From: Planctomycetota bacterium
Lineage (GTDB): Bacteria > Planctomycetota > UBA1135 > UBA2386
Assembly (NCBI GenBank): GCA_016716265.1
Contig: JADJWQ010000004.1
Location: 75,126 to 139,125, forward strand
DNA: 64,000 nt
Direction of reading: 5' to 3'
Shown here: positions 1,988-44,950 of the stretch, piece after piece
Layout of the letters: each line of letters starts with the position of its first letter
How positions within the stretch are numbered: the stretch's first letter is position 1
Notes under the pieces: model-generated
Databases searched by the model: none
What the model saw: the letters and a program-made list of their open reading frames with translations, nothing else
Told to the model about the DNA's origin: nothing
Translations under genes and position numbers: made by a program

Positions 1988-2160
1988 GCTATCCCTTCCC
2001 CGACGCGACCGTCATTGGGTTGCGCGCGGGCCTCGCGCGGGGCAGGGGCCTGTAGTGGTCCAGCAATCTTCCGGGCTGCGCCGGCGCGACGCATCCCGCT
2101 CTGAGAGCCTGGTTTAGCATCCTTTCCTTGGTCGGCTTCCCTCGGAGTTCCAAAGCCCCG
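1988..2160 (-). mobile_element. remnant of the 3' end of an rve-type IS (same family as 16293..17388)
   Basis: Shares the terminal motif TCCC-TTCCCCGACGCGACCGT with the copies at about 16293 and 18144. The minus frame encodes '...GRLLDHYR...', resembling the family's 'ERLGGLLRHY' transposase C-terminus. Confidence 0.35.
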
Positions 2161-2162
2161 CC

Positions 2163-6010: not shown

Positions 6011-6980
6011 GGGGAGAGCCGTGTTTGGAAGACGAATCGGTGCAGCAGCGGACGAGAGCGACCGCGATGCGCGGGAGTTGTTGTATCCGGCGCTGTGTCG
6101 AATGGACAAGCCCACGTGCGCTTTCGTTCAGTCGTTCCATCGGTTTGGTCTCGCGAGGGTAATGGCTCCGGGATCGAGCAGAGAGGTCTGCTCGCCCGGA
6201 TATCAGATGGACCCCGCACGGGCCATGCGTAGGGAATCGGTCGAGAAGAACGTGTGACGCAGGCACTCCTCCCGATTGGACACGGGATACAAGACCAGCG
6301 TCCTGGGAGGAGCGCCCCACGAGGCCTCGTTCTCGTGTGGGTATCAGTCGAGCACGCGGGAGTCGCGGTATCGATGCAGAGACTGGTCTATGCGACGGTG
6401 GCACCGGCGAGCTCGGGAGACGGCCGCCGCGCGGTGGACGACCGCGGAGACCGAGAAGACGATCGCCGAGCGAACGCGTACATAGAGGTGCTCCGAGCGC
6501 TCGAACTCGACGATTGCGGGACAGGACTCGGACGATGATGCGATCAACCGCGAGGTCGAGGTGCTCTACGGACCCACCCGCGACCCGATCGAGCCGCGCC
6601 ACAGGTCCGTGCGCGACCGAATCCGAGATCCGAGGCCCGGTCCGTCCGCGGTTGCGAGGGCTCGTTCCTCGGGCCCGTTCCGTTGCTCCCGCACGGACCG
6701 ACGGCATGGAATCGAATCGCGGTCGCGCGCGGGTGATGCGCATTCGGTGTCGAGTATCGGAGGCGACCGGGATATCCGGGTGGGCCGACTGATCCCCTCG
6801 AGACTCAGGCGCTGCGATCGGAATCCCGGTCGCCCCGCGCCCGGGCTCTGCCTGTCACCGCGCGGAGCGCCCCGAAGTAGGCAAGATCTCCCCGACCGGA
6901 CTCCCGGCGACTGCACCCGACCGCGCCCTCGCTCCGCCGCACGGCGCCCGGCCTCCCCGCGCAGGGCGCCGAAATCCCCT

Positions 6981-7598
6981 TTGTCCTTCCTACGGGCGGT
7001 CGCCACGTGTCTCTGGTTCGATGGCCGGGTCGAGGAGGCAGCCCTGTTCTACGTCCCGCTCGTCCCTGGCTCCGAGCTGGGTCCGGTGCTCCGGACGGAC
7101 GACGGTGCGGCCCTGGTCGTCGAACTCGGTCTCGGCGGGGCGCGCTACCAGCTCCTGAACGGCGGGCCGCGGTTCCGACTCGACGAGGCCGCGTCGATCG
7201 TCGTCCACACCGCGGACCAGGCCGAGACGGACCGGTATTGGCACGCGGTGAGGTGCGACGGCGGTGAGGAGAGCAGATGCGGCTCGTGCCGGGACCGGTT
7301 CGGCGTGTGGTGGAAGGTGGACGCCGACGCGACCATGCGATGTCAGGCCGCAAGTCCTCGGACGCTGTCCGGCGCCGTCGAGCGCAGCCGGTTCCTGCCG
7401 ACCGCGCTCCGCGGCACCGGGGTGCAGCAGAGTGACGTGGAGTCTGGTCGAGCGCTCGCCGTCGCGGGCATCGGATCATCTGGTCCGGATCGCGCGCGAT
7501 GGGTGAGCCGACCCCTGCTCAGCGGCCGTGAGTCGTCTCGAGGATGTTCGAGCAGGAGACCCGGCCCCAGTAGCAGGTTGGGGGGGTGCCGGGAGTGA
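6981..7598 (+). CDS. VOC-superfamily PhnB-like protein (3-demethylubiquinone-9 3-methyltransferase-type domain), C-terminus aberrant
   Basis: TTG at 6981, then 'ATCLWFDGRVEEAALFYV...YQLLNGGPRFRLDEAASIVVHTADQAETDRYWHAV..GGEESRCGSCRDRFGVWWKV', which matches the family core as I recall it. The last ~80 codons look unlike the family and overlap the convergent gene at 7519. Confidence 0.5.
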   Translation: MSFLRAVATCLWFDGRVEEAALFYVPLVPGSELGPVLRTDDGAALVVELGLGGARYQLLNGGPRFRLDEAASIVVHTADQAETDRYWHAVRCDGGEESRCGSCRDRFGVWWKVDADATMRCQAASPRTLSGAVERSRFLPTALRGTGVQQSDVESGRALAVAGIGSSGPDRARWVSRPLLSGRESSRGCSSRRPGPSSRLGGCRE

Positions 7599-9801
7599 GG
7601 GTCCAGAACTGCCAGCGCAGCGTCCTGCCCAGCCAGTTCGGGTCGCAGGTCACCGGGATCGGAACGAAGGCCTGGCCGTTGGCGAGCGGGACGTCGACGG
7701 TGAACGTCGGCAGCAGGGCGCGGCAGGCGTTGCACGGGAAGATCGGCGCACTGGGCGCCAGGCTGAGGTCCACAGCGAGGATGCTCATGGTGCTGGCGGC
7801 CCCGGTGAGCCGCAGCCCCCAGTCGCGGTTGCCCAGCGCCATCGGTCCCTCCGCGGTGAGCGTGCCACCCTGGCCGCAGCCGCCGCCGATGTTCACGATC
7901 GGACCACCGTTGCCGAACGCTTCGAAGCCCTGCGCCCAGACCCTGAATCCGTCATGGATCACGACCATTCCGCGATCATCGTTGTCCCTGCCGCCGGCAT
8001 AGGTGGACGTCACGTTGCTGAATGACGAGAAGGTCTTGACCAGGTCGCGCGGGCCGCAGACCTGCGGGCTGCCGGTGACCCGCCCGATGTAGCTGTCGGC
8101 ACGGGCAGGATTGTTGAAGACCCTGTTGTGGCCGATTGCGTAGTACTGAACAGATGGACTGGGTCCATCCTGTACGAGCGCGAGCGACGGGAACTCCACA
8201 TCCTGATTCGGATCAGCGTCGTACGGGGCAGCACCGTTGTCCAGCATCGAGGAGCTGGCTGACGACGGCACGGTGAATCCCCTGATCCAGATGTCGTCGT
8301 CGTTCGAGCTGTTCGGCCGTTGGTAGGCCAGCAGAAAGTCCGTGCCGTTGCCGTCGATGCTCGGCCGAGACGCAGCGCCGAAGGCGAAGTTCGCACTGCG
8401 GAGGGCGCTGTTCATGCTGATTGCGCGAAGGACGATGAGGGGCGAGGCCTCCCAGGCGACGACCGCAACACGTCCGGAGCCACCGCTGTTGGAGATTCGC
8501 GGGTTTCGTGCACTGACGTCGCTCGACAGCTGGGTGAGCCGGCTGGTGATCAGGTTGGAATCGAGGTTCGCCGCGATCGTGACTTCCTGGCTCACGACCC
8601 CTTTCTTCTCAGGAAGGGTCGGAAGGGGCTCAGGTTGAATATAGACCACGAGGCACTCGTCGTCGGCGGTCGTTCGCTCGCCGCAGACGTCAGGCTGGAA
8701 CCCCTCCTCGTCCATGCCGACGACGGGAGAATTGATTGCGTCCTGGATGTTCAGCTTGCTGCCCATGACCCCGTCCACGGCTCGCACGGCGCGGCCCCAG
8801 ACTTCTCGCGAAGGCCCACTTCCGGAGTAGTGGTTGTCGAACTCCCACACGACGTAGAATGCGTCCCGCACGTTCACGCTGGCGACTCGTGGTGCGTAGT
8901 CGTCGTTGCCGTTCGTGTCGATCAGGACGGGGTTGCCGACGGGGGTGCCGTCCGCGCGAATCCGTTGCCCGAGGACATCCCGGTCCAGCACGGCCGTGGT
9001 GCGTTCCCAGACGACCAGGTAGAGGTCGTTCGTGACGTCGTACGCCACGTCGGGGTACCAGACCGAACCGCTCGGACCGATCTGGGCCAACGAGCCGATC
9101 AGGGGGTCGAGGGTCAGCGGGTAGGAAGCGGAATCGACGAAGGCCGCCGGCAGGACCAGGTCGAGGTACGAGCCGTCGAATTCGAGCCACCCGCTCCGCT
9201 GGCGACCGCGGGCGTCGATCCCGACAACCGCTCCGATTCCGACGACGTCCCGAGCGCCGTCACGCAGCACCAGGCCGTCCGTGTAGGTGCCGGCCGGGGC
9301 GGCGAGATCGGACTCGAGCGCGACGCGCACGCGCAGGTCGCCGCTGCCCTCCGGACGCTCGGCGAAGACAACGCTGTGCTTCAAGCCCTCGTCGCGGACC
9401 TCGTAGAGCTCGCGGATCCCGTCGCCGTGGCGGTAGGAGACGGTCTTGTCGTCCAGCGTCGGGTCGGTGGCGGGACCCTTGCCCTCGCGTGCGAGCCCGT
9501 CACCGCTGCCTCGTCCGGCGTCGACGAACGAGAAGCGGACGGGAAGCGACACGGGTGCGTCTGCCCCGAGCACGGGGGTGAAGGTCACCCCTTCGGTCGT
9601 GAAGGACGCCTTCCAGTCGGCTTGGACGGCCCACAGCTCGCCGTCGACGCGCTGCACCGTGGCCGACTGCAGCCAGGCCTGCGCCTGCATGGTCGTCGCC
9701 TGGGGGGCGCCCTGGGAGGCGAAGTCCTGGGGAGACTGGGCGTCGAGAGCGTGCGGGAGCAGGAGTGCCGCCGCGAGTGGTAGGTAGATCGTGTTCATCA
9801 T
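7519..9801 (-). CDS. large secreted protein, paralog B
   Basis: MMNTIYLPLAAALLLPHALDAQSP signal peptide. Collinear with paralog A (shared blocks GELWA.QA.WKA, VVGIDARGR, LVLPAAFVD.A.YPL.LDPLIG, DVAYDVT.DLYLVVW). C-terminus ...TCYWGRVSCSNILETTHGR. Confidence 0.8.
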   Translation of the reverse strand: MMNTIYLPLAAALLLPHALDAQSPQDFASQGAPQATTMQAQAWLQSATVQRVDGELWAVQADWKASFTTEGVTFTPVLGADAPVSLPVRFSFVDAGRGSGDGLAREGKGPATDPTLDDKTVSYRHGDGIRELYEVRDEGLKHSVVFAERPEGSGDLRVRVALESDLAAPAGTYTDGLVLRDGARDVVGIGAVVGIDARGRQRSGWLEFDGSYLDLVLPAAFVDSASYPLTLDPLIGSLAQIGPSGSVWYPDVAYDVTNDLYLVVWERTTAVLDRDVLGQRIRADGTPVGNPVLIDTNGNDDYAPRVASVNVRDAFYVVWEFDNHYSGSGPSREVWGRAVRAVDGVMGSKLNIQDAINSPVVGMDEEGFQPDVCGERTTADDECLVVYIQPEPLPTLPEKKGVVSQEVTIAANLDSNLITSRLTQLSSDVSARNPRISNSGGSGRVAVVAWEASPLIVLRAISMNSALRSANFAFGAASRPSIDGNGTDFLLAYQRPNSSNDDDIWIRGFTVPSSASSSMLDNGAAPYDADPNQDVEFPSLALVQDGPSPSVQYYAIGHNRVFNNPARADSYIGRVTGSPQVCGPRDLVKTFSSFSNVTSTYAGGRDNDDRGMVVIHDGFRVWAQGFEAFGNGGPIVNIGGGCGQGGTLTAEGPMALGNRDWGLRLTGAASTMSILAVDLSLAPSAPIFPCNACRALLPTFTVDVPLANGQAFVPIPVTCDPNWLGRTLRWQFWTLTPGTPPTCYWGRVSCSNILETTHGR

Positions 9802-10119
9802 GGTCGAGTGTGGCGAGGCCGCGATGGGGACCCGCGTCCGGTCATGCCCCGAGAGCGACGGGGTCGCGGAGACCGCCGTCCAAGATCACGGCCGGTTCTT
9901 CGTGGTGTTCGAAGCTGGTGAAGGGCCGGCGTGCCGGCTCGAGACGGGGACGGGCGGCCGCTCCATCGAGCGGGACCGACCCGAGGGCCTCATGCCCCGT
10001 CTCGCTCCGAGGCGGCGCGTTTTTCCTCACGATCTCGGCGGCCAGTCGGCAAGAACTCCGCGAGCTCCTGCTCACGACCCCTGCGAGATCGCGGACCGCT
10101 GCTACCCTTCCCCCCCTGC

Positions 10120-12966
10120 ATGCCCCCGCCACGCGTCGACATCCTGCGCCTCAAGGAGCTGTTCGACGCCGCCGCTCCGCTGACGGCAGCGCAGCGCGAG
10201 CGCTACCTCGACGAGCACTGCCCGGGGGACACGCCGCTGCGCCGGAAGCTCGCGCGGATGCTGGCCGACTCCGGGTCGCCGTCGGCCTTCGCCGCGGCGG
10301 GCCCGGCATCGCGCTCCGCCAGCGCGCCGCCCCGCAGGATCGGCCGCTACGTGCTGCAGGCCGAGATCGGCGCGGGAGGCATGGGAGTGGTCCACCGCGC
10401 GCAGCAGCTCGCCCCGGTGTCGCGCGAGGTCGCGATCAAGTGGCTCCGCCCGGGGATGGGCAGCGAGCAGGTGCTGAGGCGCTTCGAACGCGAACGCGAA
10501 GCGCTCGCCGCGATGAACCACGAGAACGTCGTCCGGGTGTTCGACGCCGGGGTGACCGACGACGGACGGCCGTACTTCGTCATGGAGCTCGTCGACGGCG
10601 TGCCCCTGGATCGATACTGCGCCGAACACGAGGCGGGGCTGGTCGAGCGGATCCGGATCTTCCAGCAGGTCTGTGCCGGAGTGCAGCACGCCCACCAGAA
10701 GGGCGTGATCCACCGTGATCTCAAGCCCGCGAACGTGTTGGTCTGCCGCTCCGACGACGGACCGCGGGTCAGGATCATCGACTTCGGCCTCGCCCGAGGG
10801 CACGACCCCGAGCTGGGCGCGGACACGATGATCACGCGGCAGGGCATGCTTCTCGGAACGCCCGAGTACATGTCGCCGGAACAGGTCGCCGGCGATCCCG
10901 GTGCCGTGGATGCGCGCACGGACGTCTACTCGCTCGGCGTGATCCTGTACGAACTCCTCTGCGGCGAGCTACCGCTCTCGTCCGCTGACTTGCGCGACGC
11001 GGGACTGCTCGAGCTGGGGCGGCGGATCAGCGAACGGGAGCCCCGCCGGCCCAGCGCCCGCGTGTGGTCGCAGGTCGCTCGACGGTCGTCGGGCGAATCG
11101 CATCGGAACGGGAGTTCGCGGCAGACGTCGCCGGCCCGGCGCGCGCTCGCCCGCAGGCTGCGCGGCGACCTGGACTGGATCGCGCTCCGGGCCCTGGCGA
11201 AGGACCCCGAGGGGCGCTACGCCTCGGCCGCCGACCTGAGCGCCGACCTCGATCGCCACCTGGCCTGTGAGCCGATCGCGGCCGGGCGTCCCGGCCGGAC
11301 CCACGCCCTGCGCAAGTTCGTGCGTCGCAACCGGCTCGAAGTCGCCGTCGCGGTCACGGTCCTGTCCGCATTCGTCGCCGGTCTGCTCGGTGCGATCGAC
11401 GGCTTGGTCGAAACCGAGGCGGCGCGCAGGCGCGAGAGACTCGCGAGGGTTCGTGAGCAGCAGACGATGGACCCGCTGCGCGTCGCCGACCTGCTCGATC
11501 GGGCGCGCGCACCCTGGCCCTCCGAGCCGACGCTGGAGGCCAATCTGGTGGCGCTCGAGCTGTGGCTCGAGGAAGCCGACCTCCTGCTCGGCCGCGCCGG
11601 GATGCACGAGGCCGCGCTCGCAGGTGTCGCAGGGACCTGGGAGCTCGCTTCGCCGGCCCGCGAGTCCAGCTCCGTCGTCGACCCGGCGTCGGACCCTGGC
11701 GTCGACCATCCGGCGGTCGAGCACCCGGCTGCCGATGACCCGGGCTCCCGGCGCGACGCGAGCGGAGACCGAGGCGCGGCGCGCGCGTCCGGTGCGAAGC
11801 CCGACGCCGCTCCACCCGCCGATCCAGACGGGGGCCCGATCCACGCCGGGCTGCGACCAGGGTCCGAGTCGGCGCGTTTCGCGGCGCTGGCGGACATGCT
11901 CACGTCCCTGCCGGAACTTCGAGCTCGCAGAGACGAGATCGCCGGCCGGCGCGCCGTGCTCGAGCGTCACTGGCCCCTGTGGTCGGTGTTGCGCGACGGC
12001 CTGCGCGGCGTCGAGGGATTCGAGACGGCCGACCTGCGACCTGTCCCGCACCTGATTCCCCTCGGCATCGACTGCGATCGGAACCGCGAGCTCGGCCGCC
12101 AGGTCGAACCGCTCTGGCTGTTCGCGGTCGGAGGAACCGGCGAGATCCCGGAGTGGCTGAACGCCGAGACGGGCGCGCCGGCGCCCTACGGCACGCGCGG
12201 ACGGCTGCGCCTCGTCGAGGACTCCGCAGTGATCCTCGTGCTGCTGCCCGGCGGCGGCTTCTGGCGCGGCACCCAGTGCGACGATCCGACGCTGCCGAAC
12301 TACGACGACATCCCGCGCCCGCACGGCGAACCGCCCGATCGCAGCGGTCCCGTCCTCCACGTGCCCGTGAAGCCGTTCTTCCTGTCGAAGTACGAGCTTA
12401 CCCGGGCCCAGTACGCACGCTTCGTCGCGGCGACCGATCACCGGGCCTGTCCAACACACGGCGCCGCGGACGTCGGTCATCACGCAGCGCGCGGCATCGA
12501 CTGGCGTGACGCTGCGCTGTTCTGCGAATGGGCCGGGCTGGCCTTGCCCAGCGAGACGCGCTGGGAGTATGCGGCGCGGGCGGGCACGACCACGCCGTTC
12601 TGGTCGGGGCGAGACGAGAGCGCACTGGCGCGCGTCGGTTGGTATTGCGGGAATCGTGCGTCCTATCCGCAACCCGTCGGCACGAGCCCGACCGGGATCG
12701 GCGCGCCGAATCCCTGGGGTCTGCACGACGTGCACGGTGGTGTGCGCGAGTGGTGTCAGGACCTGTGTACGAGGCACTGGCGCGAGGGGCCGTGGGACGA
12801 CCGAGCGCGCACCCACGGCGAGAACACCCATCGGATCGCCCGCGGGGGTGGGTTCACGTTGGGCGTCGACGCCGCGCTGGCGGGGCACCGTGCCTACTTC
12901 CCACCCGGGTGTGACTTCCCCGACATGGGGTTCCGTCCGTCCTGCGAGCTGGGCCGAGCACCATGA
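10120..12966 (+). CDS. Ser/Thr protein kinase fused to a C-terminal FGE/SUMF1-like (formylglycine-generating enzyme family) domain
   Basis: ATG at 10120. Kinase motifs [15 protein letters not shown] and [10 protein letters not shown], then one TM segment. The C-terminal domain has [27 protein letters not shown] and GFRP. Confidence 0.9.
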
Positions 12967-15380
12967 TCGAGCGGCAGACGCTCCCGTCGATTGCCGGCTA
13001 CCGCGTTCTGCACAGCGTGGGGTCGGGCGGTTTCGGCACCGTGTATGCGGCCGAACGGCTCGAGCCGGTGCGTCAGCGCGTGGCGCTCAAGGTGCTTCGC
13101 CCGGGTATGGAACGCCCGGAGCTCCTGGCCCGCTTCGAGCGCGAGCGGCAGGCGCTGGCCATGATGAACCACCCGAGCATCGCCGCGATGCTCGACGCCG
13201 GCGTGGACGATCTCGGGCGGCCCTTCGTCGCGATGGAGTTCGTCGACGGCAAGCCGATCACGGAGTTCTGCGACGACCACGCGCTCACCACGCGCCGGCG
13301 GCTCGAGCTGTTCGTCTCGGTGTGTCGCGGCGTGCATCACGCGCATCAGAAGGGCGTCGTCCACCGTGACCTCAAGCCGGCCAACGTCCTCGTCCTCGAG
13401 GCCGATGGCGTCCCACGCCCGAAGATCATCGACTTCGGGATCGCCAGGGCGGTCGAGCCCGACCGCGCCGAGCACTCGTTGCTGACGCTGCCGGGGCGGA
13501 TCCTGGGGACGCCGGACTACATGAGTCCGGAGCAGGCCGATCCCGAGAACGTGGACGTCGATACGCGCTCCGACGTCTACTCGCTCGGCGTGCTGCTGTA
13601 CGAGCTGCTGACCGGAGCGTTGCCGTTCGCGGACGACGAGCTCACGCTCAGGCACCCGGCCGAGGTCCAGCGTATCCTGCGCGAGCGGGATCCTCGGCCG
13701 CCGAGCACGCAGAGCCGCGCGCAGAATCCGGCGGCTGCCGAAGCCCGGGCGAAGAACCGCGGCCTGTCGATCGAGCTGCTCGCGCAACGACTCCGCGGCG
13801 ACCTCGATGCGATCACGATGATGGCGCTCCGCAAGGAACGGGAGCGTCGCTATCCCTCGGCCAGCGCGCTGGCCGACGACGTGGATCGCCACCTGCGCGC
13901 CGAGTTGGTCCTCGCGCGGCCGGCGACCGCGCGGTACCGGTTCGGCCGATTCGTCCGCCGACACCGGGCAGCCGTCGCAGCGGCGTGCGTCGCCGTCACG
14001 GCTTTGATCGGCGCCTTCCTCGTGACGCTGTGGAGTCTCGGTCGCTCCGTCGAGGCGCGAGCGCGGGAGGTCGCCGCACACGCGCTGGAGCGTCGGGCGA
14101 CGGACCCGCTGAGGGTCGAGCAGCTGCTGCATCGGGCGAGGATCCCCTGGCCGCAGACCGTGGACGCCGCTCAGGAGAACGACCGCTGGCAGGCCTGGCT
14201 CGAAGAAGCCGAGGACGTGCTGAGTCGTGTCCCCGAGCTCGCGACCGCGACCTCATCACGCTCGGCCGACCACGTCGACCTGCGAACGCGGAACCTCGGG
14301 CAGATGCGGGCTCGCTTGCCCGAGCTCCGTCGCTGGCGCACGGAGGTCGCCGGGCGCCGTGCGGTTCTCGCGCGTCATGGCCCGCTTTGGGAGACCTGTC
14401 GTGAGAGCCTTCGAGCCTCCCCCGACTTCGCGGGTGTCGACGTCGCGCCGTTGCCGCGGTTGATTCCTCTGGGCATCGACCTCGATCGCGACAGGCGTCT
14501 CGGGCGCCAGGTTCAGCCGCTGTGGGTGTTCGCGGTCGGCGGCACAGGTGCGATCCCGCGCTGGGTCGACGATCGAGGGCGGGACGTCGACTACGGTGGG
14601 CCCGGTCGGGCGGTCATGGCCGTCGACACGGCCGTTCTGCTGGTCCTCCTCCCGGGCGGCTCGGCGTGGCAGGGTACTCAGACCAACGATCCGAACGCGT
14701 TGCATTACGAGGCCCTGCCGGAGGGCGTGTCGCTCGGCACGGAGGCACCGCTCCACCGGGTCACGTTGTCGCCCTTCTTCCTCGCCAAGTATGAGGTGAC
14801 CAACGAACAGTACCTGCGCTTCGTCGCGGCGACCGGGGCGGCGTTGCCCGACTACGTCGACCACGAGCGGATCGGCGGCGCGGGGAAGCCGGTCGTCGGC
14901 GTCGATCGGGACGAGGCGATGGCGTTCTGTCGTTGGCTCGGCCTGCGGCTGCCGAGCGAGTCGGAGTGGGAATATGCCTGCCGCGCCGGAACGACGACGA
15001 GATTCTGGTTCGGCGACGAACCCGAGGAGCTGATGCGGGCGGGGTGGATCGGACGCCGGTCGGAACAGGGCGGCTCTCCGATGCCGGTAATGCTGGGCGG
15101 TCGCGGGGTGTCCCGAGCGAATCCCTGGGGTCTCCACCACATGCATGGCAACGTGGAGGAGATCTGTCGTGACGACTTCCATGGGTCCTACGTCGGCGCG
15201 CCGGCCGACGGCAGTCCGCGCGTCGACGGTGAGGGGCTCGGACCCGTGCGCCGCGGCGGGTCGTGGCACGACGGCTGGGAGTTCTGCCGGTCGGCAACTC
15301 GCACGAGCAACCGGCCGCATGGGCCCTACGGTCGACGGTTCGACCGCCTCGGCTTCCGGGTCGCGCGGAACCCGTACTGA
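12963..15380 (+). CDS. Ser/Thr protein kinase fused to a C-terminal FGE/SUMF1-like domain (tandem paralog)
   Basis: Start overlaps the upstream stop (ATGA at 12963-12966). Motifs [16 protein letters not shown] and [10 protein letters not shown], then a TM segment, then [34 protein letters not shown] and LGFRVARNP. Confidence 0.9.
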
Positions 15381-15482
15381 CGCCCGGCGGCTTCGGCCTA
15401 CGATTGGCCGGCGTGGTCTCGGCACGCGCGGTGGAATCCCGTAACTCCAGACGCCTTCGGGCGCTCCACATCTGGAGGGAAC

Positions 15483-16064
15483 GTGACGCAACGCGACTCA
15501 TCGCAACGGATCTCTGAACTCATCGAGTCGGCGCAGGCGGGCGGCGAGCAGGCGGCAGAGGAGCTGTTCCCCCTCCTGTACGGAGAGCTTCGTGACCTCG
15601 CACGACAGATGATCGCCCGCGAACGACCGGGCCAGACCCTGCAGCCCACCGCGCTCGTCCACGAGGCCTACCTGCGGATCGTCGGCGGGCGCGACCGCGG
15701 CTGGGACGGCCGCCCCCACCTGTTCGCGGCGGTCGCCGAGGCCATGCGCCGGATCCTGATCAACCGTGCCCGGCGCAAGGGCCGGATCAAGCACGGCGGC
15801 GATCACGAGCGCGTCGAACTGGACCTGACCGACCTGCCCATCGAGGCGCCGAGCGAGGACATCCTGCAGGTCGAAGAGGCGCTCGCGTCACTCGAGGCGG
15901 CCTATCCCCAGGCGCGGGCGATCGTCAATCTGCGCTACTTCGCGGGGTTCACGAACCAGGAAACCGCGGATGCGCTGGGGATGTCCGATGCGACGGTTCG
16001 GCGCGAGTGGCGCTTCATCCACGCCTGGCTGCGAGACGCCCTGGGCCCCGTCGGGCCGGAGTGA
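15483..16064 (+). CDS. ECF-type RNA polymerase sigma factor (TIGR02999 / Sig-70_X6-like)
   Basis: GTG start. Motifs 'LIESAQAGGEQAAEELFPLLYGELRDLARQ', 'LQPTALVHEAYLRI' and region 4 'LRYFAGFTNQETADALGMSDATVRREWRFIHAWL' are typical of the kinase-associated ECF group. Confidence 0.9.
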   Translation: MTQRDSSQRISELIESAQAGGEQAAEELFPLLYGELRDLARQMIARERPGQTLQPTALVHEAYLRIVGGRDRGWDGRPHLFAAVAEAMRRILINRARRKGRIKHGGDHERVELDLTDLPIEAPSEDILQVEEALASLEAAYPQARAIVNLRYFAGFTNQETADALGMSDATVRREWRFIHAWLRDALGPVGPE

Positions 16065-22205: not shown

Positions 22206-23729
22206 ATGATCCCGCGTGATCTCGAGGCCGAGATCCTCCGACTCCACCACGTCGAGAAGTGGAAGGTCGGCACGATCGCCGCGCAGCTCGGCGTGCATCA
22301 CGACGTCGTCCGCCGCGTCCTGCAGCAGGACGGCATGCCGCAGTCACGACCACAGCGGCCGAGTCGGATCGACCCGTACCTGCCCTTCATCCTGGACACC
22401 CTGCATCGCTACCCGCGCTTGCCGGCGAGCCGTCTTTACGTGATGTGCAGGGAGCGCGGCTACCGCGGCAACCCGGACCACTTCCGGCACATGATCGCGC
22501 GGCATCGTCCGGAGCGCCCCAAGGAGGCGTTTCTGCGCATGACGGCGCTGCCCGGCCAGCATCGGGCAGGTCGACTGGGGTCACTTCGGCAAGCTCCAGA
22601 TCGGGCGCGCCGTGCGCGCCCTGATGGCCTTCGTGATGGTGCTGGCCTACTCGCGCCGGATCTTCCTGCGCTTCTACCTCGACCAGCGCACCAGCAGTTT
22701 CCTGCGCGGCCACGTCGCGGCCTTCGATGCATGGAACGGCGTGCCGAGGACCCTGCTCTACGACAACCTCAAAAGCGCCGTCCTCGAGCGTCGTGGTGAT
22801 GCGATCCGCTTCAATCCGCTGCTGGTCGACTTCGCGCGCCACCACCGCTACGAGATCCGGCCGGTCGCGGTTGCGCGCGGCAACGAGAAGGGCCGCGTCG
22901 AACGCGCGATCCGCTACATCCGCACGTCCTTCTGGCCGGCGCGCTCGTGGCGCGATCTCGACGACCTCAACGACCAGGCCACCGACTGGTGCGACAGCCA
23001 CGCGATGGACCGTGCCTGGCCCGGCGACCGGACCCGGACCGTGGCCGATGTCTTCGCCGAGGAGCAGCCGCGTCTGCTCTCGCTACCGGAGGCTGCGTAC
23101 CCGACCGAAGAGCGCAACGAGGTGCGCGTCGGCAAGACCCCGCACGTCCGCTTCGACGGCAACGACTACTCGGTGCCGCACGAGCTCGCCCAGCGGTCCG
23201 TCGAGCTGCGGGCCTCGCTCGAGCAGGTGCGGATCCTGCACGAGGGCCAGTCGTCGCCACGCATCCGCGGTCGTTCGACCGCGGTCAGGTGATCGAGGAT
23301 CTCGCGCACGTGCACGGTCTGCGCAAGGCCAAGGGCGAGCTGCGTCGGCATCGTGCGCAGGACCGGCTGGCGCAGGCGGCACCGAGCAGCCAGCAGCTGT
23401 TCGTCCGGATCGCCGAGCAGGGCTTCAACCTCGGGCGGTCGACGCAGCTGATCGTGCAGCTGCTCGACCGACACGGCGCCGTCCGTCTCGAGCAGGCGAT
23501 CCGCGAAGCTCTCGCTGCCGGGCACCCACAGCCACCACGCCCTGCGCCACATCCTCGAGCGGATGCGCCACGACGAGGGCGACCACCCGCGGTGCCGGCG
23601 AAGTTGCCGGAGGATCCGCGCGTGCGCGACCTCGCGGTACGGCCACCGGAGCTCGGCAGCTACGACGCGCTGCTCGACGGACCGCAGGACCAGACCTCGA
23701 AGGAGGCCGACGATGTCACGACGGACTGA
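22206..23729 (+). pseudogene. istA: IS21-family transposase IstA with multiple frameshifts
   Basis: N-terminal HTH '[33 protein letters not shown]', then the core '[31 protein letters not shown]...[13 protein letters not shown]...[17 protein letters not shown]'. The sequence is spread over frames 0/1/0/1/0, with shifts near 22560, 23255, 23520 and 23590. Confidence 0.8.
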
Positions 23730-24490
23730 CGAGGCACTGAAGGAGCAGGCCCGGCGACTGGGCCTGTGGGGCCTGCTGGCGAACTGGGAGACGCTGGGGC
23801 GCGAGTCGTGGGTGTGCGACTACCTTGACACCGAGGACGACGTTTGGCAGCAGCGCAGCCTCGAAGCGGCGCGTCCGCAATGCGAAGCTCGGTCGCTTCA
23901 AGACGATGGCCGACTTCGACTGGCAGTGGCCCGAGAAGATCGACCGCGATCACGTCGACGACGTCCTGGGCCTCGGCTTCATGGACGAGAACGCCAACGT
24001 CGTCATCGCCGGACCCAACGGAGTCGGCAAGACGACGATCGCACAGAACCTCGGCTACCAGGCGCTGATGAAGGGCCACACCGTGCTGCGGGTGACCGCG
24101 AGCGAGATGCTCAACGACCTCGCCGCGCAGGAGTCGTCGGTCGCGCTCGCGCGGCGGCTCCGGCGCTACTGCAACCCGGCTCTGCTGATCGTCGACGAGA
24201 TCGGCTACCTGAGCTACGACAGCCGGTGCGGCGACCTGCTCTTCGAGGTCGTCAGCCGTCGCCACGAGCTTCGGTCGACGGTGCTGACGACCAACAAGGC
24301 CTTCTCGGAGTGGACCGAGGTCTTCTCGAACGCCTCGTGCGTGACCGCGCTGATCGACCGCCTGGTCCACCGCGCCGAGATCGTCAAGATCGAGGGACGG
24401 TCCTACCGGGAGAAGGAGGCCCACGAACGCAACGCGCGCAGGGCGGCAGAACGGGGACGGAAGTCGCGAGCCGCCAAGGCGCGGTCGTGA
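23713..24490 (+). pseudogene. istB: IS21-family ATP-binding helper IstB, frameshifted
   Basis: AGGAGG then ATG at 23713 (MSRRTDEALKEQARRLGLWGLL...). A frame change near 23865 leads into 'NAKLGRFKTMADFDWQWP...VIAGPNGVGKTTIA...LLIVDEIGYL...TTNKAFSEW' (Walker A and B motifs). Confidence 0.8.
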
Positions 24491-24930
24491 GCGGCACCCC
24501 GCGGCGGCCGCCACCCAAGCCCCCGCGACCGGAACTCGTGCGACGGCCGCATGGCGCCTTCGGATGGCTCGCGGCCGAACTGCTCCACGATCGTTGGCTC
24601 GCCGACCTCGGGCCACACGCGACTGCGATCCTCGTGCTGCTCGCGATCGCTGCCGATCGCCACGGCGCGTCCTTCTACGGTCGTGATCGCATGGCCGGCG
24701 TGCTCGGCATCACACGGCAGCACGTCGACGCTGCGCTCGCGCGTCTCCTCGACTTCGGCCTCGTCACCTTCCGGCCCTGGCGGGCCGGTGGTCAGGACGG
24801 CGTCTGGCAGCTCCTGCCGCTGCCGGTTCGCTCGGCTAACGCGCGGTCCGGCGCTAACAGGGAACTGTCGATCGCCGAGGTGCTACGCACCCTCGGCTTC
24901 CAGCCCCGGCAGGGCCACACCGCCGAATAG
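24487..24930 (+). CDS. putative winged-helix/HTH protein, fourth ORF of the IS21-like element
   Basis: GTG overlaps the istB stop (GTGA). 'ILVLLAIAADRHGASFYGRDRMAGVLGITRQHVDAALARLLDFGLVTF' looks HTH-like. Confidence 0.45.
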   Translation: MSGTPRRPPPKPPRPELVRRPHGAFGWLAAELLHDRWLADLGPHATAILVLLAIAADRHGASFYGRDRMAGVLGITRQHVDAALARLLDFGLVTFRPWRAGGQDGVWQLLPLPVRSANARSGANRELSIAEVLRTLGFQPRQGHTAE

Positions 24931-24955
24931 GCGCGGATCCCGACCGCCGCCTACA

Positions 24956-25291
24956 GTGGATCAGGCTCATGAACAGGTCGCCGACCCGAGCGCCGTTCGG
25001 GGTCTTGTAGAACATCGCGTTCTTGCGGTGGAGGATCGCCTTCTTCAGCGCACGCTCGCAGATGTTGTTGTCGAGTGGCGCTCCCGGCTCGCGCAGGAAC
25101 AGCGTCAGCCCGGCCCAGTGCTTTCGCATGTAGACGATCGACTCGCCGAGGCTGGAGTTCGGCTCGACCTTGCGGTCTTCGATCTGGTCCTCGAGCCAGC
25201 CTTCGAGCGCCGCCATGAGCGGCTGGCTGCGCTCCTGGTGCAGCGCGAGCCCGTCCTGTCCGGAAACTCGACTGGCTTGCTGCGGAACGAC
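24956..25291 (-). pseudogene. IS66-family transposase, internal/C-terminal fragment
   Basis: '[17 protein letters not shown]...[68 protein letters not shown]'. The frame is closed by TAA at 25292-25294, so the N-terminal ~2/3 of the gene is missing. Confidence 0.75.
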
Positions 25292-25483
25292 TTAGAGTCT
25301 TTCGGCCCACCGCACCAAAGGGGACTTGAGCGGCGACATCGGCACTTCAGTCGCAATTCGCCACGATGGCGGAATCTCAAACCGCCGGCTGCGCCGGTCG
25401 CCTGGGCACCACCCGAAACGGTCCGGCGCAACGCCGTAACTCGTGTAATGACAACGCGGACCAGTTTCGGACAGGACGGGCAA

Positions 25484-31644: not shown

Positions 31645-32427
31645 TCAGCGACGCTGTGCGATGAAGTCGATGCCGAGCGTGCCGAACAGGGCGGCGCTGC
31701 TGTGCTGCCGCGCACCCGCGAAGACGTCGCCACGCCACGTGACGCGGAAGCCCTCGAATCCGGCGGCCACGACCGTGACCTCGAGCTCTGCCTCTTGCAG
31801 AGCCCCGGCGATTCAACCCGTCCAGAGGTCGATGCGGTGCAACGCCTGCCGCGGGACCTCACGCCGCACGATGATGTCGGCGAGCTGGAGCCGCCCGCCC
31901 GGACGAAGAACGCGCCGCATCTCGGCGAGCGCGCGAGCCTTGTCCGGCAACAGGTTGAAAACGCCGTTGCTGATCACCACGTCGGCCCAGCCGTCGGGGA
32001 CCGGCAACTCCTCGGCCAGGCCCTCGTGCACCTCGAGATTCGCGAATGGCGCCTCGGCGGCGCTGACCCGCGCCTTCTCGACCATGGCCGGTGTCATGTC
32101 GACGCCGATCACCCTGCCTGTCGCGCCGACCATCTTCGCGGCGATCCACGCGTCGGCGCCCGCGCCGCAGCCGATGTCGACGACGTGCTCACCGGCCCGC
32201 AGCGGACCGGCGCGGAACGGGTTGCCCGTGCCGGCGAACGACTCGACCGTGCGCTCTGGCACGTCGCCGAGCCAGTCCTCGTCGTAGCCGAGCAGAGCGA
32301 ACAGCAGCCTCCCGGTGTGGAAATGGAAGCCACGGCCGGGCTCGCGCGCGACCGCGTCGTAGTCGGCCCGGATGGCGTGCCGCAGCTCGGCTCCGTCGAT
32401 CCACGTGTCCGCTCGTTCGGTGTCCAT
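31645..32427 (-). CDS. ArsM-like SAM-dependent methyltransferase with in-frame UGA (candidate Sec at codon 205, nt 31813-31815)
   Basis: ATG at 32427. SAM motif 'VVDIGCGAGADA', then 'VVISNGVFNLLPDKARALAEMRRVLRPGGRL', then 'DLWTG-TGA-IAGALQEAELEVTVVAAGFEGFRVTW...FGTLGIDFIAQRR*'. The TGA aligns with the Cys of the ArsM 'LW.GC(L/I)AGAL' motif. The downstream 56 codons remain open and family-like. Confidence 0.7.
31783..31805 (-). promoter_or_regulatory. SECIS-like stem-loop 3' of the UGA in the ArsM-like gene
   Basis: Minus strand reads GGGCUCUGC-AAGAG-GCAGAGCUC: a 9-bp stem with one G-U pair and a 5-nt loop. The stem starts 8 nt after the UGA and the loop lies at +17..+21. Confidence 0.5.
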
Positions 32428-32574: not shown

Positions 32575-33504
32575 ATGACCACCTACTCCTTCGCTGGCTG
32601 CCTGCAGAACTCCCAGCGCATCAACTGGCGCCTCGACGAGGTGCTGGGTGATCGCGATTTCGATCCCCGCAAGCGCTGGCTGCCGCAGGCCCTGTCCGGT
32701 GCCGACGCGGTCCGGTGCCTCGACGATGACGAGAAGCGCAAGCTCACGCACGTCGAGATGGCCGCCTACGCGCACCTCTTCGGATACGTCGAGGAGTTCA
32801 TCGCGCCCAAGATCGCGGAGCTGGCATGCGACCACCGGGAGAGCGACCGCACCGCCTTCCACGCGCTGACGAGCTTCGCTGCCGAGGAGGTCAAGCACAT
32901 GACCCTGTTCCGTCTCCTGCGTGACCGCATCGACGCGAAGATGGGCTTCGGTCTACAGCTCGTCGGCGATGCGGAAGGCACTGCCACCTACGTGCTCGGC
33001 AAGAGCCCCGGCGCCGTGCTCCTGCTCACCGCGTGTATCGAGTGGTTCACGCAGCGCCACTACCGCGAGTGCTTCGTCGAGGATGCGACGCTCGACCCCT
33101 TCGTCCGCCACGTCTTCAAGATGCACTGGCTGGAGGAGTCGCAGCACGCCAGGATGGACCACCTCGAGACGCTGCGCGTGTTCACTGCCAGCGACGATGC
33201 CGAGCGCGACCGCGCGGTCGACGACCTGATCGATCTCGTCGCCGCGGTCGACGGTCTGCTGCAGATGCAGGCGGGCTTCGACGTCGACAACCTGTCCCGC
33301 TACCTCGGTCGCGAGTTCGACCAGCGCGCACGCGAGGAGATCCTGGCCAGCGTGCTGCGCGCCAAGCGTCACACGTTCCTGGCGTCCGGCGTAACGCACC
33401 CGCGTTTCCAGGAGCTGTTCCTCGAGGTCACCACTCCGGCCCAGCAGGAGCGGGTCGGCGCCGCTCTCGGCGCGCTGCTCGCGGGTGACGCCGCGACCGT
33501 CTGA
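32575..33504 (+). CDS. ferritin-like diiron oxygenase (AurF / p-aminobenzoate N-oxygenase-like family)
   Basis: ATG at 32575 (MTTYSFAGCLQNSQRINW...). Two E..H diiron motifs, 'FAAEEVKHMTLF' and 'HWLEESQHARMDH', with family-like spacing. The 647-aa ORF in the track is a spurious 5' extension. Confidence 0.8.
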   Translation: MTTYSFAGCLQNSQRINWRLDEVLGDRDFDPRKRWLPQALSGADAVRCLDDDEKRKLTHVEMAAYAHLFGYVEEFIAPKIAELACDHRESDRTAFHALTSFAAEEVKHMTLFRLLRDRIDAKMGFGLQLVGDAEGTATYVLGKSPGAVLLLTACIEWFTQRHYRECFVEDATLDPFVRHVFKMHWLEESQHARMDHLETLRVFTASDDAERDRAVDDLIDLVAAVDGLLQMQAGFDVDNLSRYLGREFDQRAREEILASVLRAKRHTFLASGVTHPRFQELFLEVTTPAQQERVGAALGALLAGDAATV

Positions 33505-33576
33505 GCGCGCGGCATGGCGGCTGGCCGCCACGGCGTCATTCCGACAGTCCGTTCCCGCCTATCACGAATACCTCCG

Positions 33577-34668
33577 ATGACCTTCCGCCCGATCCTGCTC
33601 GCGCTGGCCCTGACCGCCGCCGTTACGCCGGCGCAAGGCGAGGCCGACCGCGATCCGCGCTCGGCCCGCGCCGAGTTCGAGCACTTGCTGCTCGAGCACG
33701 TGCGCGAGCAGCGCGAGGTGGCGCGGGCCGCGCCCGAGCTCGACCGGCTCGCGACCCTCGACCGCGCTGCGGCCCGTCTCGCGCCACGGTTCCTGGCGTT
33801 CGCCGAGGCCTGCCCGGACGCAGCGGTGCAGCTCGAGGCGCTGCTGTGGCTCGCGCAGAACGCGCCGACCGGCTCCGCGGACGGCGCGCGCGCGGCCACG
33901 CTCGTCGGCGAGCGGTTCGCGTCGGCACCGGCCGCGCTGCGCGTGCTGCCCTCCCTCGGCCGCTTCTGCCCACCCCTGACGGAGGACGAGGCGTCGGGGA
34001 TCGCCGAGCGTCTGTGCGTCGAGCAGGTCGGTGATGAAGCCAGGTCCCGCTGCCATTTCTACGCCGGTGACCTGCTCCTCCAGCGACGCCCGGGCCAATC
34101 AGCCCCCGAGGCTGCCCGCCAGCACCTCGAGCGGAGTCTCGCATTGACGCAGGAGCCTCGCCGCCGAGCGGCCGCGGCGCGATCGCTCCACGCCGCCACG
34201 GTGATCGACGTCGGTGCGCGTGTTCCGGCCGTCCACGGCGTGGACTTCGACGGCGCGGCGTTCGATCTCTCGCAGCGGCGTGGCAAGGTCGTCCTGCTCT
34301 CGTTCTGGGCCGACTGGTGAGGCGCGTGCAAGGCACACGCCCCCGCCGAGCGGTCGCTCGCGGAACGACTCGACAACCGCCCGTTCGAATTCGTCGCGAT
34401 CAGCGTCGACCAGGATCTCGCGGTCGCACGCCGCACCGCTGCGGCGTTGGGCCTGCCCGGCACGCAGCTGTGGGCGGGTCCGAAGGGCACGGCGGGCCCG
34501 TTGCCCGAGGCGCTGATGGTGCCGAGCTGGCCGTTCTTCCTGCTCGTCGATGCCGAGGGCGTCGTGCGCTGGCGCAGCCACCGGTTCGACGGCCTGCCCG
34601 AGACAGCGCAGCGCTGGGTCGAGGCCGCGGAGCGCGCCGCCGCCGGGGCACCGGCGATCGGCAGGTGA
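33577..34668 (+). CDS. secreted TlpA/ResA-like thioredoxin-fold protein with in-frame UGA in the CxxC motif (candidate Sec at codon 248, nt 34318-34320)
   Basis: ATG at 33577 gives MTFRPILLALALTAAVTPAQG, a signal peptide. '...GKVVLLSFWADW-TGA-GACKAHAPAE...FEFVAISVDQD...LMVPSWPFFLLVDAEGVVRW' matches the canonical FWA.WC..C redox motif and Trx-fold continuation in the same frame. The track splits it into 33514..34320 and 34447..34668. Confidence 0.7.
34343..34363 (+). promoter_or_regulatory. SECIS-like stem-loop 3' of the UGA in the TlpA-like gene
   Basis: CCG(C)CGAGC-GGUC-GCUCGCGG: an 8-bp stem with one bulged C and an apical GGUC tetraloop at +32..+35 from the UGA. As I recall, the E. coli fdhF SECIS also has a GGUC apical loop. 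Confidence 0.5.
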
Positions 34669-42639: not shown

Positions 42640-44823
42640 TCAGACGATCCGCTCGACGTGGTCGACGCGGATCGTGCGCTCGCCCTCGGGGACGACGATC
42701 GAGCTCTCCTCGCCCGGGCGCGTGCCGAGCAGCGCGTGAGCCAGCGGCGCGCGGTAGTTGACGATGTCTTCCTCGATACAGTCCCAGGGGCCGAGGATCC
42801 GCAGCGCGCCGGTCTCGCCGGTGTCGACGTAGGTGAAGCGCACCCGCGTGCCGGGCGCGACCATGCCCTCCGGGATCTTCTGATCCTCGAGCAGCCGCGC
42901 GCGCTTCAGCTCGCGCGACATCTCCTCGGCGCGGCCGGTCAGGTTGCGTTGCTCCTCCATCGCGGCCTCCCACTCGGCGTTCTCCGACAGGTCGCCGTAC
43001 GACGCCGCCGCGTGGATCGCCTTCGCGTTGAGCGGGATCTTCTCGTCGACCAGCACCCGGTGCGCCTCCTTGTGGCGCGCGAAGCCGGCGGTCGTCACGT
43101 AGATCACGCCGTCGTTCTCCCAGAACGGGCGCTCGGGCTTCTTGGTCAGGTCCGGGAAGCGGTCGGCGACCACGCGGAGGATCGCGTCCGTGACCTCCTG
43201 CGGGAACTCCTGGCCGCCGCGCTCGGCGATGCCGAGGAACGCGGCGACATCGGCGCGGGCGCCCGACTCGAGTGCGCGGCCGAGCAGCGACCGCCTGCCG
43301 ACCAGCAGGCTCGTGACGCGCGAGCGGATGCGATTCAGGGCGGGCTCGCCCTTGCGCTCCTTCGCGATGATGCGCGCGAGGTGCATCACGACGCGGGCGA
43401 CACCGACCAGGTCGGGTGCATCCTCACGCCCGTCGAACACGCCGTCGGCGTAGAGCTTCGCGAGCAGGTAGGTGACGGTCGGGTGCTTGCGGGGGAACGG
43501 CGCGACCTGCGCCCAGGTCGGCGCCAGGCGATCCGCGACCTTCGCCTCCTGCAGGCGCTCGACGACGAGCTCGGCCTCTTCGGCCGGCACGCTGGTGATC
43601 TTCGCGAGGCACTGCTCCTCCCAGCCTGCGCCGAGGGCGTCGGGCAGCAGCTGGATCGCATGAGCACGGCTCTCGGCCGTGGCGAGCTGCGCGATCCGCT
43701 CCGGGTGGAACTCGCCGGTGTGGTCGACGACCAGCCGGCGCAGCTCCTCGGCGGCCGACACGCTGGTCGAGCGGCCGTGCTCCTCGAGGAACACGATGCC
43801 GTCGAGCAGGTGGGCGGGCGTGTCGCTGCTCGCCGCGACCGCGGCATCGATCCGCGCCTGCGCGAGGTCGAGGAACGTCGCCTCACCGTGCTCGTGCAGC
43901 CCGCGCGCCAGATACTCGCGCGTCACCGCGATCACCTCGGGGATGTCGTGGCAATGGCCGAGGCGCTTCTCCGCTTCCTCGGCGAGCGACAGCGGCTGCT
44001 TGCGAAGCTCGAAGAGCGGTCGCTGCTTGGTGCCGGTGACCTCCAGCCAGGGGTCGTGCGAGGCGGCGGTCTTGGCCCGCTTCCACCACGCGTTCCAGCT
44101 CTTCTGCGGCACGACCGACGGGCACACCTCGCCCTTGAGCTGCGTGCTCGAGATCGAGCCGCGGAACACGCTCGCCGCCATGCGGATCAGCCGCGACGGG
44201 TCGTCCTGCGCGATGCGATCGAGCCCTGCAGGATCGAGCAGCCGCATCGCGCGGATGTCGTCGGGCGCCAGCGGGCGCAGCGTGTCGACGGCCTTCGCGA
44301 GCGGGAACTCGCGCTCGGCGCCATCGGCGAACTCGACGCGGAGCGTGCGCCCGTGCGGGTCGAGCTCGCGGACGATTCCCTCGCCCCAGCCGGCGCGGTG
44401 GTTGACCACGTTGCCGGGCGTCATCCGGCGCGCGCGCTCGAACAGTGCGAAGGCGTCGGCGGTGGGCTTCTCCGCCGCGAGCCCGCTCAGCTCGCTCACC
44501 ACCTCGAACCAGGGCTCACTGCCGCAGCGCTTGCGGACGATCTGCATCGTGTTGCGCACGAAGCTCTCGTTGTGCGCATCCTTGCGGATCAGCGTGATTG
44601 CCAGCTGCAGCGCGTCGTCGAGGCGATCGCGCTTCTCCAGCGTGTCGACCATCCGGGTGCCGAGGTCGAGCGCCGTGCCGTGCTGGTTGCGGTCGCAGAG
44701 CTCGGTGAGCGTCTGGCAGTAGACCGCCACGTCGCCGGGGCTCTCGACGGCGCGGTCCCAGGCGTCTTGGAGACCGTCGAGATCGCGGCTGCGGACCAGC
44801 GTGAGGTAGTCGTGCTCTGTCAA
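42640..44823 (-). CDS. long GreA/GreB-family transcription elongation factor homolog with large N-terminal extension
   Basis: C-terminal 'AASYGDLSENAEWEAAMEEQRNL...' plus an FKBP-like Gre C-domain 'GTRVRFTYVDTGE...LRILG...NYRAPLAHALLG'. The N-terminal region includes a CarD/TRCF-like segment, 'GNVVNHRAGWGEGIVREL'. Confidence 0.85.
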   Translation of the reverse strand: MTEHDYLTLVRSRDLDGLQDAWDRAVESPGDVAVYCQTLTELCDRNQHGTALDLGTRMVDTLEKRDRLDDALQLAITLIRKDAHNESFVRNTMQIVRKRCGSEPWFEVVSELSGLAAEKPTADAFALFERARRMTPGNVVNHRAGWGEGIVRELDPHGRTLRVEFADGAEREFPLAKAVDTLRPLAPDDIRAMRLLDPAGLDRIAQDDPSRLIRMAASVFRGSISSTQLKGEVCPSVVPQKSWNAWWKRAKTAASHDPWLEVTGTKQRPLFELRKQPLSLAEEAEKRLGHCHDIPEVIAVTREYLARGLHEHGEATFLDLAQARIDAAVAASSDTPAHLLDGIVFLEEHGRSTSVSAAEELRRLVVDHTGEFHPERIAQLATAESRAHAIQLLPDALGAGWEEQCLAKITSVPAEEAELVVERLQEAKVADRLAPTWAQVAPFPRKHPTVTYLLAKLYADGVFDGREDAPDLVGVARVVMHLARIIAKERKGEPALNRIRSRVTSLLVGRRSLLGRALESGARADVAAFLGIAERGGQEFPQEVTDAILRVVADRFPDLTKKPERPFWENDGVIYVTTAGFARHKEAHRVLVDEKIPLNAKAIHAAASYGDLSENAEWEAAMEEQRNLTGRAEEMSRELKRARLLEDQKIPEGMVAPGTRVRFTYVDTGETGALRILGPWDCIEEDIVNYRAPLAHALLGTRPGEESSIVVPEGERTIRVDHVERIV

Positions 44824-44950
44824 GACCGTTGCGGTGCGCTCCAGGCAGGAAACTCGGGTCGCGCAACTTACCGCCCTGGTGGAGCGGGTGCAAAGGCCCG
44901 GACGATCTCACGCGCGGCGCCGGCGCACCGGCGCGCCACCGCGGCCCGGA

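Follow-up and report, generated by a model that had tools for sequence, protein, structure and literature searches.

A TlpA-like gene across an in-frame TGA

The DNA analysed here is a 64,000-nucleotide stretch of a Planctomycetota bacterium genome (GenBank assembly GCA_016716265.1, contig JADJWQ010000004.1, positions 75,126 to 139,125 of the forward strand), referred to below as the window, which contains a gene for a TlpA-like thioredoxin-fold protein whose in-frame TGA codon very probably encodes selenocysteine (Sec). On the forward strand the frame is open from 33577 to 34668, a span of 363 codons, and is broken only by the TGA at 34318-34320, right after the residues FWADW. The initial annotation had described an open reading frame (ORF) at 33514..34320 that is halted at this TGA, with the frame resuming up to 34666-34668, and the sequence reads exactly so. 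The upstream ORF ends in '...RGKVVLLSFWADW', and past the TGA the same frame runs for 115 more codons, 'GACKAHAPAERSLAERLDNRPFEFVAISVDQD...MVPSWPFFLLVDAEGVVRWRS...', until the stop codon TGA at 34666-34668. The same annotation had observed that a split into two ORFs hides the gene, and the ORF track does list two. The G+C content of the window is approximately 70%, and at the first, second and third codon positions it is 0.80, 0.56 and 0.86 upstream of the TGA and 0.76, 0.59 and 0.90 downstream, a coding pattern in both halves.

When translation is taken to start at the ATG at 33577, the read-through coding sequence (33577..34668, +) specifies a product of 363 residues in which the TGA is codon 248. 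An alternative ATG lies upstream at 33514 and would add 21 residues to the TlpA-like product. We favour the start at 33577 because a metagenomic relative, locus L140, begins with MTFRSLLLAL, compared to MTFRPILLAL in the window gene. By inspection, the N-terminus encoded at 33577..33639, MTFRPILLALALTAAVTPAQG, carries positive charge in its n-region, followed by a hydrophobic core and by small residues ahead of the likely cleavage site, and the equivalent N-termini of relatives are similar. We therefore read it as a predicted signal peptide, which would imply that the protein is exported.

The predicted signal peptide is followed by an all-helical N-terminal domain of approximately residues 27-208 (33655..34200), delimited by the AlphaFold2 model and the alignment with relatives; in the model the N-terminal ~200 residues form ten helices. 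The predicted local distance difference test score (pLDDT) is 80-94 over residues 30-120 and lower beyond residue 120 of this domain. No Pfam family matches the N-domain. It does align with the N-domains of three metagenomic relatives that carry TGA at the Sec codon (L098, L114 and L140) and of Cys-containing forms (P0002-P0007). Being conserved in the family, this helical domain may give substrate specificity.

Residues 212-355 (34210..34641) form a thioredoxin-fold domain of the TlpA/ResA/DsbE type that extends across the TGA. For Pfam and NCBIfam scoring a cysteine was put in place of the stop, and four Pfam families then match over the TGA with scores that exceed their curated cut-offs (given in brackets), namely Redoxin at 48.2 (26.6), AhpC-TSA at 44 (26), Thioredoxin_8 at 39.6 (27) and Thioredoxin at 35.7 (23.5). 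The highest-ranking NCBIfam models are TlpA, a ResA-like WAxxUGC selenoprotein family, ResA and DsbE, and every one of them is far under its cut-off (TlpA NF047696 50.4 against 230, ResA NF002854 40.6 against 170 and DsbE/CcmG TIGR00385 29.3 against 123). The window gene would thus appear to work like the TlpA/ResA/DsbE proteins and, judged by the NCBIfam cut-offs, not to be their ortholog.

The AlphaFold2 model has a pLDDT of approximately 95 over residues 210-355, and places Sec248 and Cys251 between a strand (238-244) and a helix (250-264), which is the canonical location of the active site. A Foldseek search of the PDB with this model returned DsbE (3gl3), ResA (1su9 and others), CcmG (2b1k) and a secreted oxidoreductase of Mycobacterium tuberculosis (1lu4), with per-target template modelling scores of 0.8-0.88, E-values down to 4e-9 and sequence identities of 20-26%. 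The initial annotation had proposed a TlpA/ResA/DsbE-type protein, and both Pfam and the structure prediction place a single TlpA/ResA-like domain across the TGA.

Within this domain the TGA would open the redox motif U-G-A-C. When the 12 best homologs from the database are aligned with the product, the TGA column coincides with the first Cys of WCxxC in every one. Cys251 (TGC, 34327..34329), nearly invariant in the alignment, would act as the resolving residue of UxxC. The conserved cis-proline of the thioredoxin fold, Pro319 in the sequence WPFF (CCG, 34531..34533), occupies an invariant column, and D325 and G328 are also conserved downstream of the TGA. The assignment of the UGA to the N-terminal Cys of CxxC, which the initial annotation had suggested and proposed to check by aligning the read-through product to homologs, is borne out at codon 248, with the thioredoxin landmarks kept downstream. 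It is thus very likely, from the sequence and the predicted fold, that 33577-34668 forms a single gene, whose product would be an exported thiol-disulfide oxidoreductase of approximately 38 kDa, made of a signal peptide, a helical N-domain and a TlpA-type fold with U-G-A-C.

A hairpin in the coding sequence downstream of the TGA

A hairpin of the selenocysteine insertion sequence (SECIS) type, CCGC(C)GAGC-GGUC-GCUCGCGG, lies at 34343..34363 on the forward strand with its loop at 34352-34355, and doubles as the codons for P-A-E-R-S-L-A. Counted from the UGA it occupies nucleotides +23 to +43, which are the coordinates at which a hairpin with a GGUC apical loop had been reported. The published model for bacterial SECIS (bSECIS) elements describes a loop of 3-9 nucleotides (nt) with a G in its first two positions, an upper stem of 4-16 base pairs (bp), a distance of 16-37 nt from the UGA and a minimum free energy of -7.5 kcal/mol or below (PMC13188914). 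The window hairpin agrees with every one of these constraints: the GGUC loop has G as its first base and begins 31 nt after the UGA, and the stem has 8 bp with one bulged C and a folding energy of -11.5 kcal/mol. Comparison with a SECIS model had been suggested in the initial annotation, and in addition to the fit the same element is present at the same spacing in 8 independent TGA-bearing relatives.

Hairpins with a GGUC tetraloop and at least 5 pairs occur 17 times in 128 kb (both strands of the window), which puts the chance of finding a GGUC-loop hairpin at a given site at approximately 3e-3. The 12-mer GAGCGGTCGCTC is found once in the window, at the hairpin site. Rfam models at their gathering thresholds gave no match anywhere in the window. 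We also read the fdhF sequence of Escherichia coli K-12 directly, where the apical loop of the SECIS is GGUC, the same as in the window hairpin. In both cases the GGUC tetraloop sits on a G-C-rich stem, inside the ORF and shortly 3' of the UGA. However, the fdhF loop begins 18 nt after the UGA, compared to 31 nt in the window, and the two stems are unrelated in sequence. The fdhF SECIS also has a bulged U, for which the window hairpin has no equivalent.

A search of metagenomes with the pattern TTY TGG GCN NNN TGG TGA GGN NNN TGY yielded at least 120 loci (L024-L143), with 143 loci fetched in all. Among the matches listed, nearly all continue as a thioredoxin fold past the TGA, and the FWAxW-U-GxC motif is common in nature. 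At least 8 of the listed matches belong to the subfamily of the window gene (L054, L065, L077, L096, L098, L114, L138 and L140) and have '(H)ERSL(V)..PF..GV' after the motif. In all 8, the hairpin reads CACGAGC-GGUC-GCUCGUG and the distance from the UGA to its loop is exactly 31 nt, as in the window. The core GAGCGGUCGCUC does not change among these 8 TGA-bearing relatives, even at synonymous positions. H-E-R-S-L is always encoded by CAC GAG CGG TCG CTC, although six codons are available for each of R, S and L; in the same 8 relatives, residues conserved elsewhere are written with 2-3 different codons. Such invariance within the hairpin points to selection at the RNA level. The window gene shares GAG CGG TCG CTC, and among the 143 loci this 12-mer is found only in the 8 relatives and in L001, a locus with Cys in place of Sec. 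The relatives share with the window gene the FWAxW-U-GxC motif, the core at 31 nt and the (H)ERSL(V)...PF..GV continuation, but their overall identity to it is 24-28% and their GC content is much lower than that of the window. At least three relatives (L098, L114 and L140) are built in the same way, with a signal peptide, a helical N-domain and a TlpA(Sec) domain.

The other matches listed include short thioredoxins with 'FWAEWUGGC' and acidobacteria-like long forms with 'FWASWUGxCREELPRLQKL', among others. Within the listed set, a GGUC-loop hairpin was seen only in the HERSLV subgroup and in a 'WFWAPWUG.CN.EA' subgroup, where the loop is at +26. In L026 (2823-4821), L111 and L074, and also in L037, L073 and L123, a helical N-domain and a Sec-containing TlpA-like domain are joined in one protein to a class I S-adenosylmethionine (SAM) methyltransferase domain at the C-terminus.

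A second TGA gene and the probable decoding of UGA

A second gene with an in-frame TGA lies 1.1 kb from the TlpA-like gene, at 31645..32427 on the reverse strand, and both TGA genes fall within 3 kb. Its best NCBIfam matches are three ArsM selenoprotein families and the arsenite methyltransferase NF008823, identifying it as an ArsM-like SAM methyltransferase. The TGA at 31813-31815 is in the context 'LWTG-U-IAGAL', giving the motif U-I-A-G, and UxxG is a catalogued Sec motif of arsenite methyltransferase (PMC13188914). The Cys counterpart of this site is seen as 'GECLAGA' in locus L009. The ArsM-like gene has two candidate SECIS hairpins, GGUCAC-GGUC-GUGGCC at 31765..31780 (-), 38 nt after the UGA, and GGCUCUGC-AAGAG-GCAGAGCU, 16 nt after the UGA. 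A scan of the window for same-frame ORF pairs split by TGA found credible cases only at the TlpA-like and ArsM-like sites; the pairs at 33502, 49988, 22185 and 38915 proved to be ordinary adjacent genes or non-coding continuations. With TGA exactly at known Sec positions in two genes within 3 kb, independent nonsense mutations or errors would be very hard to credit.

We put the probability that the TGA at codon 248 is selenocysteine in a genuine selenoprotein at approximately 0.88, and the source organism, an uncultured bacterium of high GC content with at least 2 putative selenoprotein genes within 3 kb, is a probable Sec decoder. A number of observations weigh against this reading. Pfam scans of ~37 ORFs across the 64-kb window found no selA, selB or selD, and ARAGORN found no tRNA in the same 64 kb, including tRNA-Sec (selC). 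No close ortholog was present in 5.8 billion proteins, where the best relative has 38% identity over part of the protein. A homolog search with the full read-through product gave only relatives at or below 38% identity and the truncated ORF of the window itself, the N-domain alone as query gave nothing further, and a scan of GTDB representative genomes found no ortholog. The folding energy of the hairpin relative to shuffled sequences gives z = -1.0, a stability that is not significant in DNA of ~70% GC. Since folding energy is uninformative at this composition, we used the motif-frequency and comparative tests described above. The window also has A-ERSL-A where the relatives have H-ERSL-V, which changes the outer pairs of the stem and leaves them dependent on the bulged C. 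Lastly, the nearest thioredoxin-domain relative among the fetched loci, L001 (9760-10430 of the Isosphaeraceae metagenome-assembled genome (MAG) contig CAWJGW010000031.1, 41% identity), has TGC at the Sec codon and yet retains an identical 18 nt of the hairpin, GAGCGGTCGCTCGCGGAA. L001 appears to have switched recently from Sec to Cys, leaving a fossil SECIS, and indicates that a SECIS-like hairpin can persist without Sec.

Because the hairpin of L001 outlasts Sec, we leave a small probability on the window gene being a pseudogene. It would then derive from a Cys gene with a fossil hairpin in which TGC mutated to TGA, or belong to a lineage that lost the Sec machinery, and translation would end after FWADW to give a product with no thioredoxin domain. 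The change from TGC to TGA takes a single base, L001 with TGC and the same hairpin sequence is an existing intermediate, and the lack of sel genes in the window and of close orthologs would both fit. However, the mutation would have to fall exactly on the catalytic Cys codon, and the 115 downstream codons retain the frame, the coding GC pattern and all landmarks of the fold. Moreover, 8 relatives have TGA at the same codon together with the same hairpin, and the neighbouring ArsM-like gene also has TGA at a known Sec site, where two independent nonsense mutations would rarely be so placed. We consider a pseudogene unlikely. In the case of a sequencing or assembly error, the real codon would be TGC or TGT and the product an ordinary TlpA-like protein of the Cys type. 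The window comes from an assembled contig, and errors do exist in related MAGs, as in L001, whose reading frame apparently shifts between the N-domain and the TlpA domain. An error here would need to hit the exact base and yield the codon used by the 8 relatives, the Sec site of the ArsM-like gene would require another error, independent of the first, and neither TGA gene shows frameshifts; we regard this explanation as very improbable.

The ORF track, with its two ORFs, would suit two separate products, but such a split would separate strand beta1 of the thioredoxin fold from the active-site helix. The sole in-frame start downstream is a TTG at 34447, which would give a 73-residue fragment without the active site. 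General reassignment of UGA to a sense codon (Trp or Gly) in this genome was rejected, as most genes in the window end at TGA. Since TGA is their normal stop, recoding of UGA would be site-specific within a standard genetic code. Two products or a reassigned UGA are, taken together, highly improbable. Our preferred interpretation is thus that UGA at codon 248 is read as selenocysteine.

In the mechanism we propose, the UGA at 34318-34320 would be decoded by Sec-tRNA(Sec) brought by SelB, which the hairpin at 34343-34363, lying within the coding sequence, would recruit through its GGUC apical loop. After export, the selenolate of Sec248 would attack substrate disulfides and Cys251 would then resolve the mixed selenenylsulfide. 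Re-reduction could be carried out by a membrane electron transporter of the DsbD/CcdA type, as for TlpA, ResA and CcmG. We infer Sec insertion in the source organism, export and the reductant from SelB-dependent recoding and from the chemistry of TlpA, ResA and CcmG.

Genomic setting, known selenoproteins and significance

Between the two TGA genes lies a gene for an AurF-like di-iron oxygenase (32575..33504, +; Pfam AurF, 47 bits), for which a start and a ribosome-binding site were identified. It and the ArsM-like gene are divergent, and 72 nt separate its end from the TlpA-like gene downstream on the same strand. We found no terminator-like site between the AurF-like and TlpA-like genes, and the two are possibly co-transcribed. 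When the neighbouring proteins of the window were used in tblastn searches, the trio of ArsM-like, AurF-like and TlpA-like genes was found in none of the fetched relative loci, which show no conserved synteny. The fusions of Sec-containing TlpA-like domains to methyltransferases in the metagenomic loci echo the TlpA(Sec) and ArsM-like(Sec) neighbourhood of the window.

Elsewhere in the window, two paralogous ORFs of ~790 residues, at 3746-6127 (-) and 7519-9885 (-), are 50% identical over 731 residues and have no Pfam match. Fusions of a Ser/Thr protein kinase and an FGE-sulfatase domain stand in tandem at 9922-12966 (+) and 12915-15380 (+), followed by an extracytoplasmic function (ECF) sigma factor of the PF07638 type at 15381-16064 (+). 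Genes of mobile elements are found at 2118-3491 and at ~22500-25300, comprising rve integrases, a Mu-type transposase C-terminus, an IS21 IstB ATPase and an IS66 transposase fragment. The signal from G+C at the third codon position is weaker across 17.5-28 kb of the window. In a 755-codon frame at 42640-44907 (-), the N- and C-terminal domains of GreA/GreB are found only at residues 602-752, and this is either GreA with a long N-terminal extension or a frame whose upstream part is non-coding.

Thioredoxin-fold selenoproteins with UxxC had been named as a known class in the initial annotation, and this class is indeed catalogued. A 2026 review lists a 'Redoxin family protein' (PF08534, UxxC), a 'Thiol:disulfide interchange protein' (UxxC) and a UGC-containing TlpA family (PMC13188914), and Zhang et al. 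2006 also catalogue a thiol:disulfide interchange protein selenoprotein family (PMC1794560). The window gene resembles the catalogued UxxC TlpA-like and redoxin selenoproteins in its fold, in Sec at the head of the redox motif, in having Cys homologs and in a SECIS that follows directly within the coding sequence. It differs from them in adding a helical N-domain of ~200 residues and in a SECIS embedded in the ERSL codons. The likeness to these families, whose reference clusters are MGB1650493.1 and HEU0032618.1, is one of fold and Sec position.

The window protein and TlpA of Bradyrhizobium, ResA of Bacillus subtilis and CcmG/DsbE of E. coli have in common a thioredoxin fold that includes the TlpA-type insertion, a redox motif of the WxxW-CxxC type and the cis-Pro. 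The known proteins are extracytoplasmic thiol-disulfide reductases, and export is predicted for the window protein. In contrast, the known proteins use Cys, do not have the helical N-domain and have known substrates, in the maturation of cytochrome c and copper centres. The ResA-like WAxxUGC selenoprotein family NF041054 is similar in length (354 residues, compared to 363) and also has Sec after WAxx. However, its motif is U-G-C rather than U-G-A-C, and the window gene scores 44.5 against a cut-off of 300 bits and so is not a member. An example of NF041054 was seen among the fetched loci in an Actinomycetes MAG (L004, ~10001-10186 of CAWEIZ010000002.1), where a thioredoxin-fold gene has 'WASW*GC'.

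From these comparisons, the window gene is best described as a probable divergent new member of a common and already described kind of selenoprotein, and the subfamily with a helical N-domain and an ERSL-embedded SECIS appears to have no curated model. A bolder and more doubtful proposal is that the window gene, together with L098, L114, L140 and others, forms a distinct uncurated selenoprotein family. Its members would be exported and combine a helical N-domain, a U-G-x-C TlpA domain and an fdhF-type GGUC SECIS in (H)ERSL(V) codons, with recent switching between Sec and Cys and maybe a coupling to SAM methyltransferases. The switching is suggested because the Cys form L001 keeps an intact hairpin. 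If this proposal is true, the ArsM-like(Sec) and AurF-like neighbours and the fusions in L026, L111 and L074 would hint at a selenium-dependent redox step in arsenic or selenium methylation or detoxification.

The window gene leaves the current understanding of selenoproteins unchanged and would come as no surprise to a specialist. Its value lies in annotation and in offering a clear case of a SECIS whose nucleotides are also read as codons. As it stands, annotation would yield a hypothetical protein of 247 or 268 residues and an orphan fragment, whereas reading the TGA as a Sec codon would restore a complete redox enzyme. The hairpin GAGCGGUCGCUC at +31 would be a compact and conserved SECIS that is usable as a search key for the subfamily, and its embedding in the ERSL codons may serve as a natural example of how an RNA signal constrains a coding sequence.

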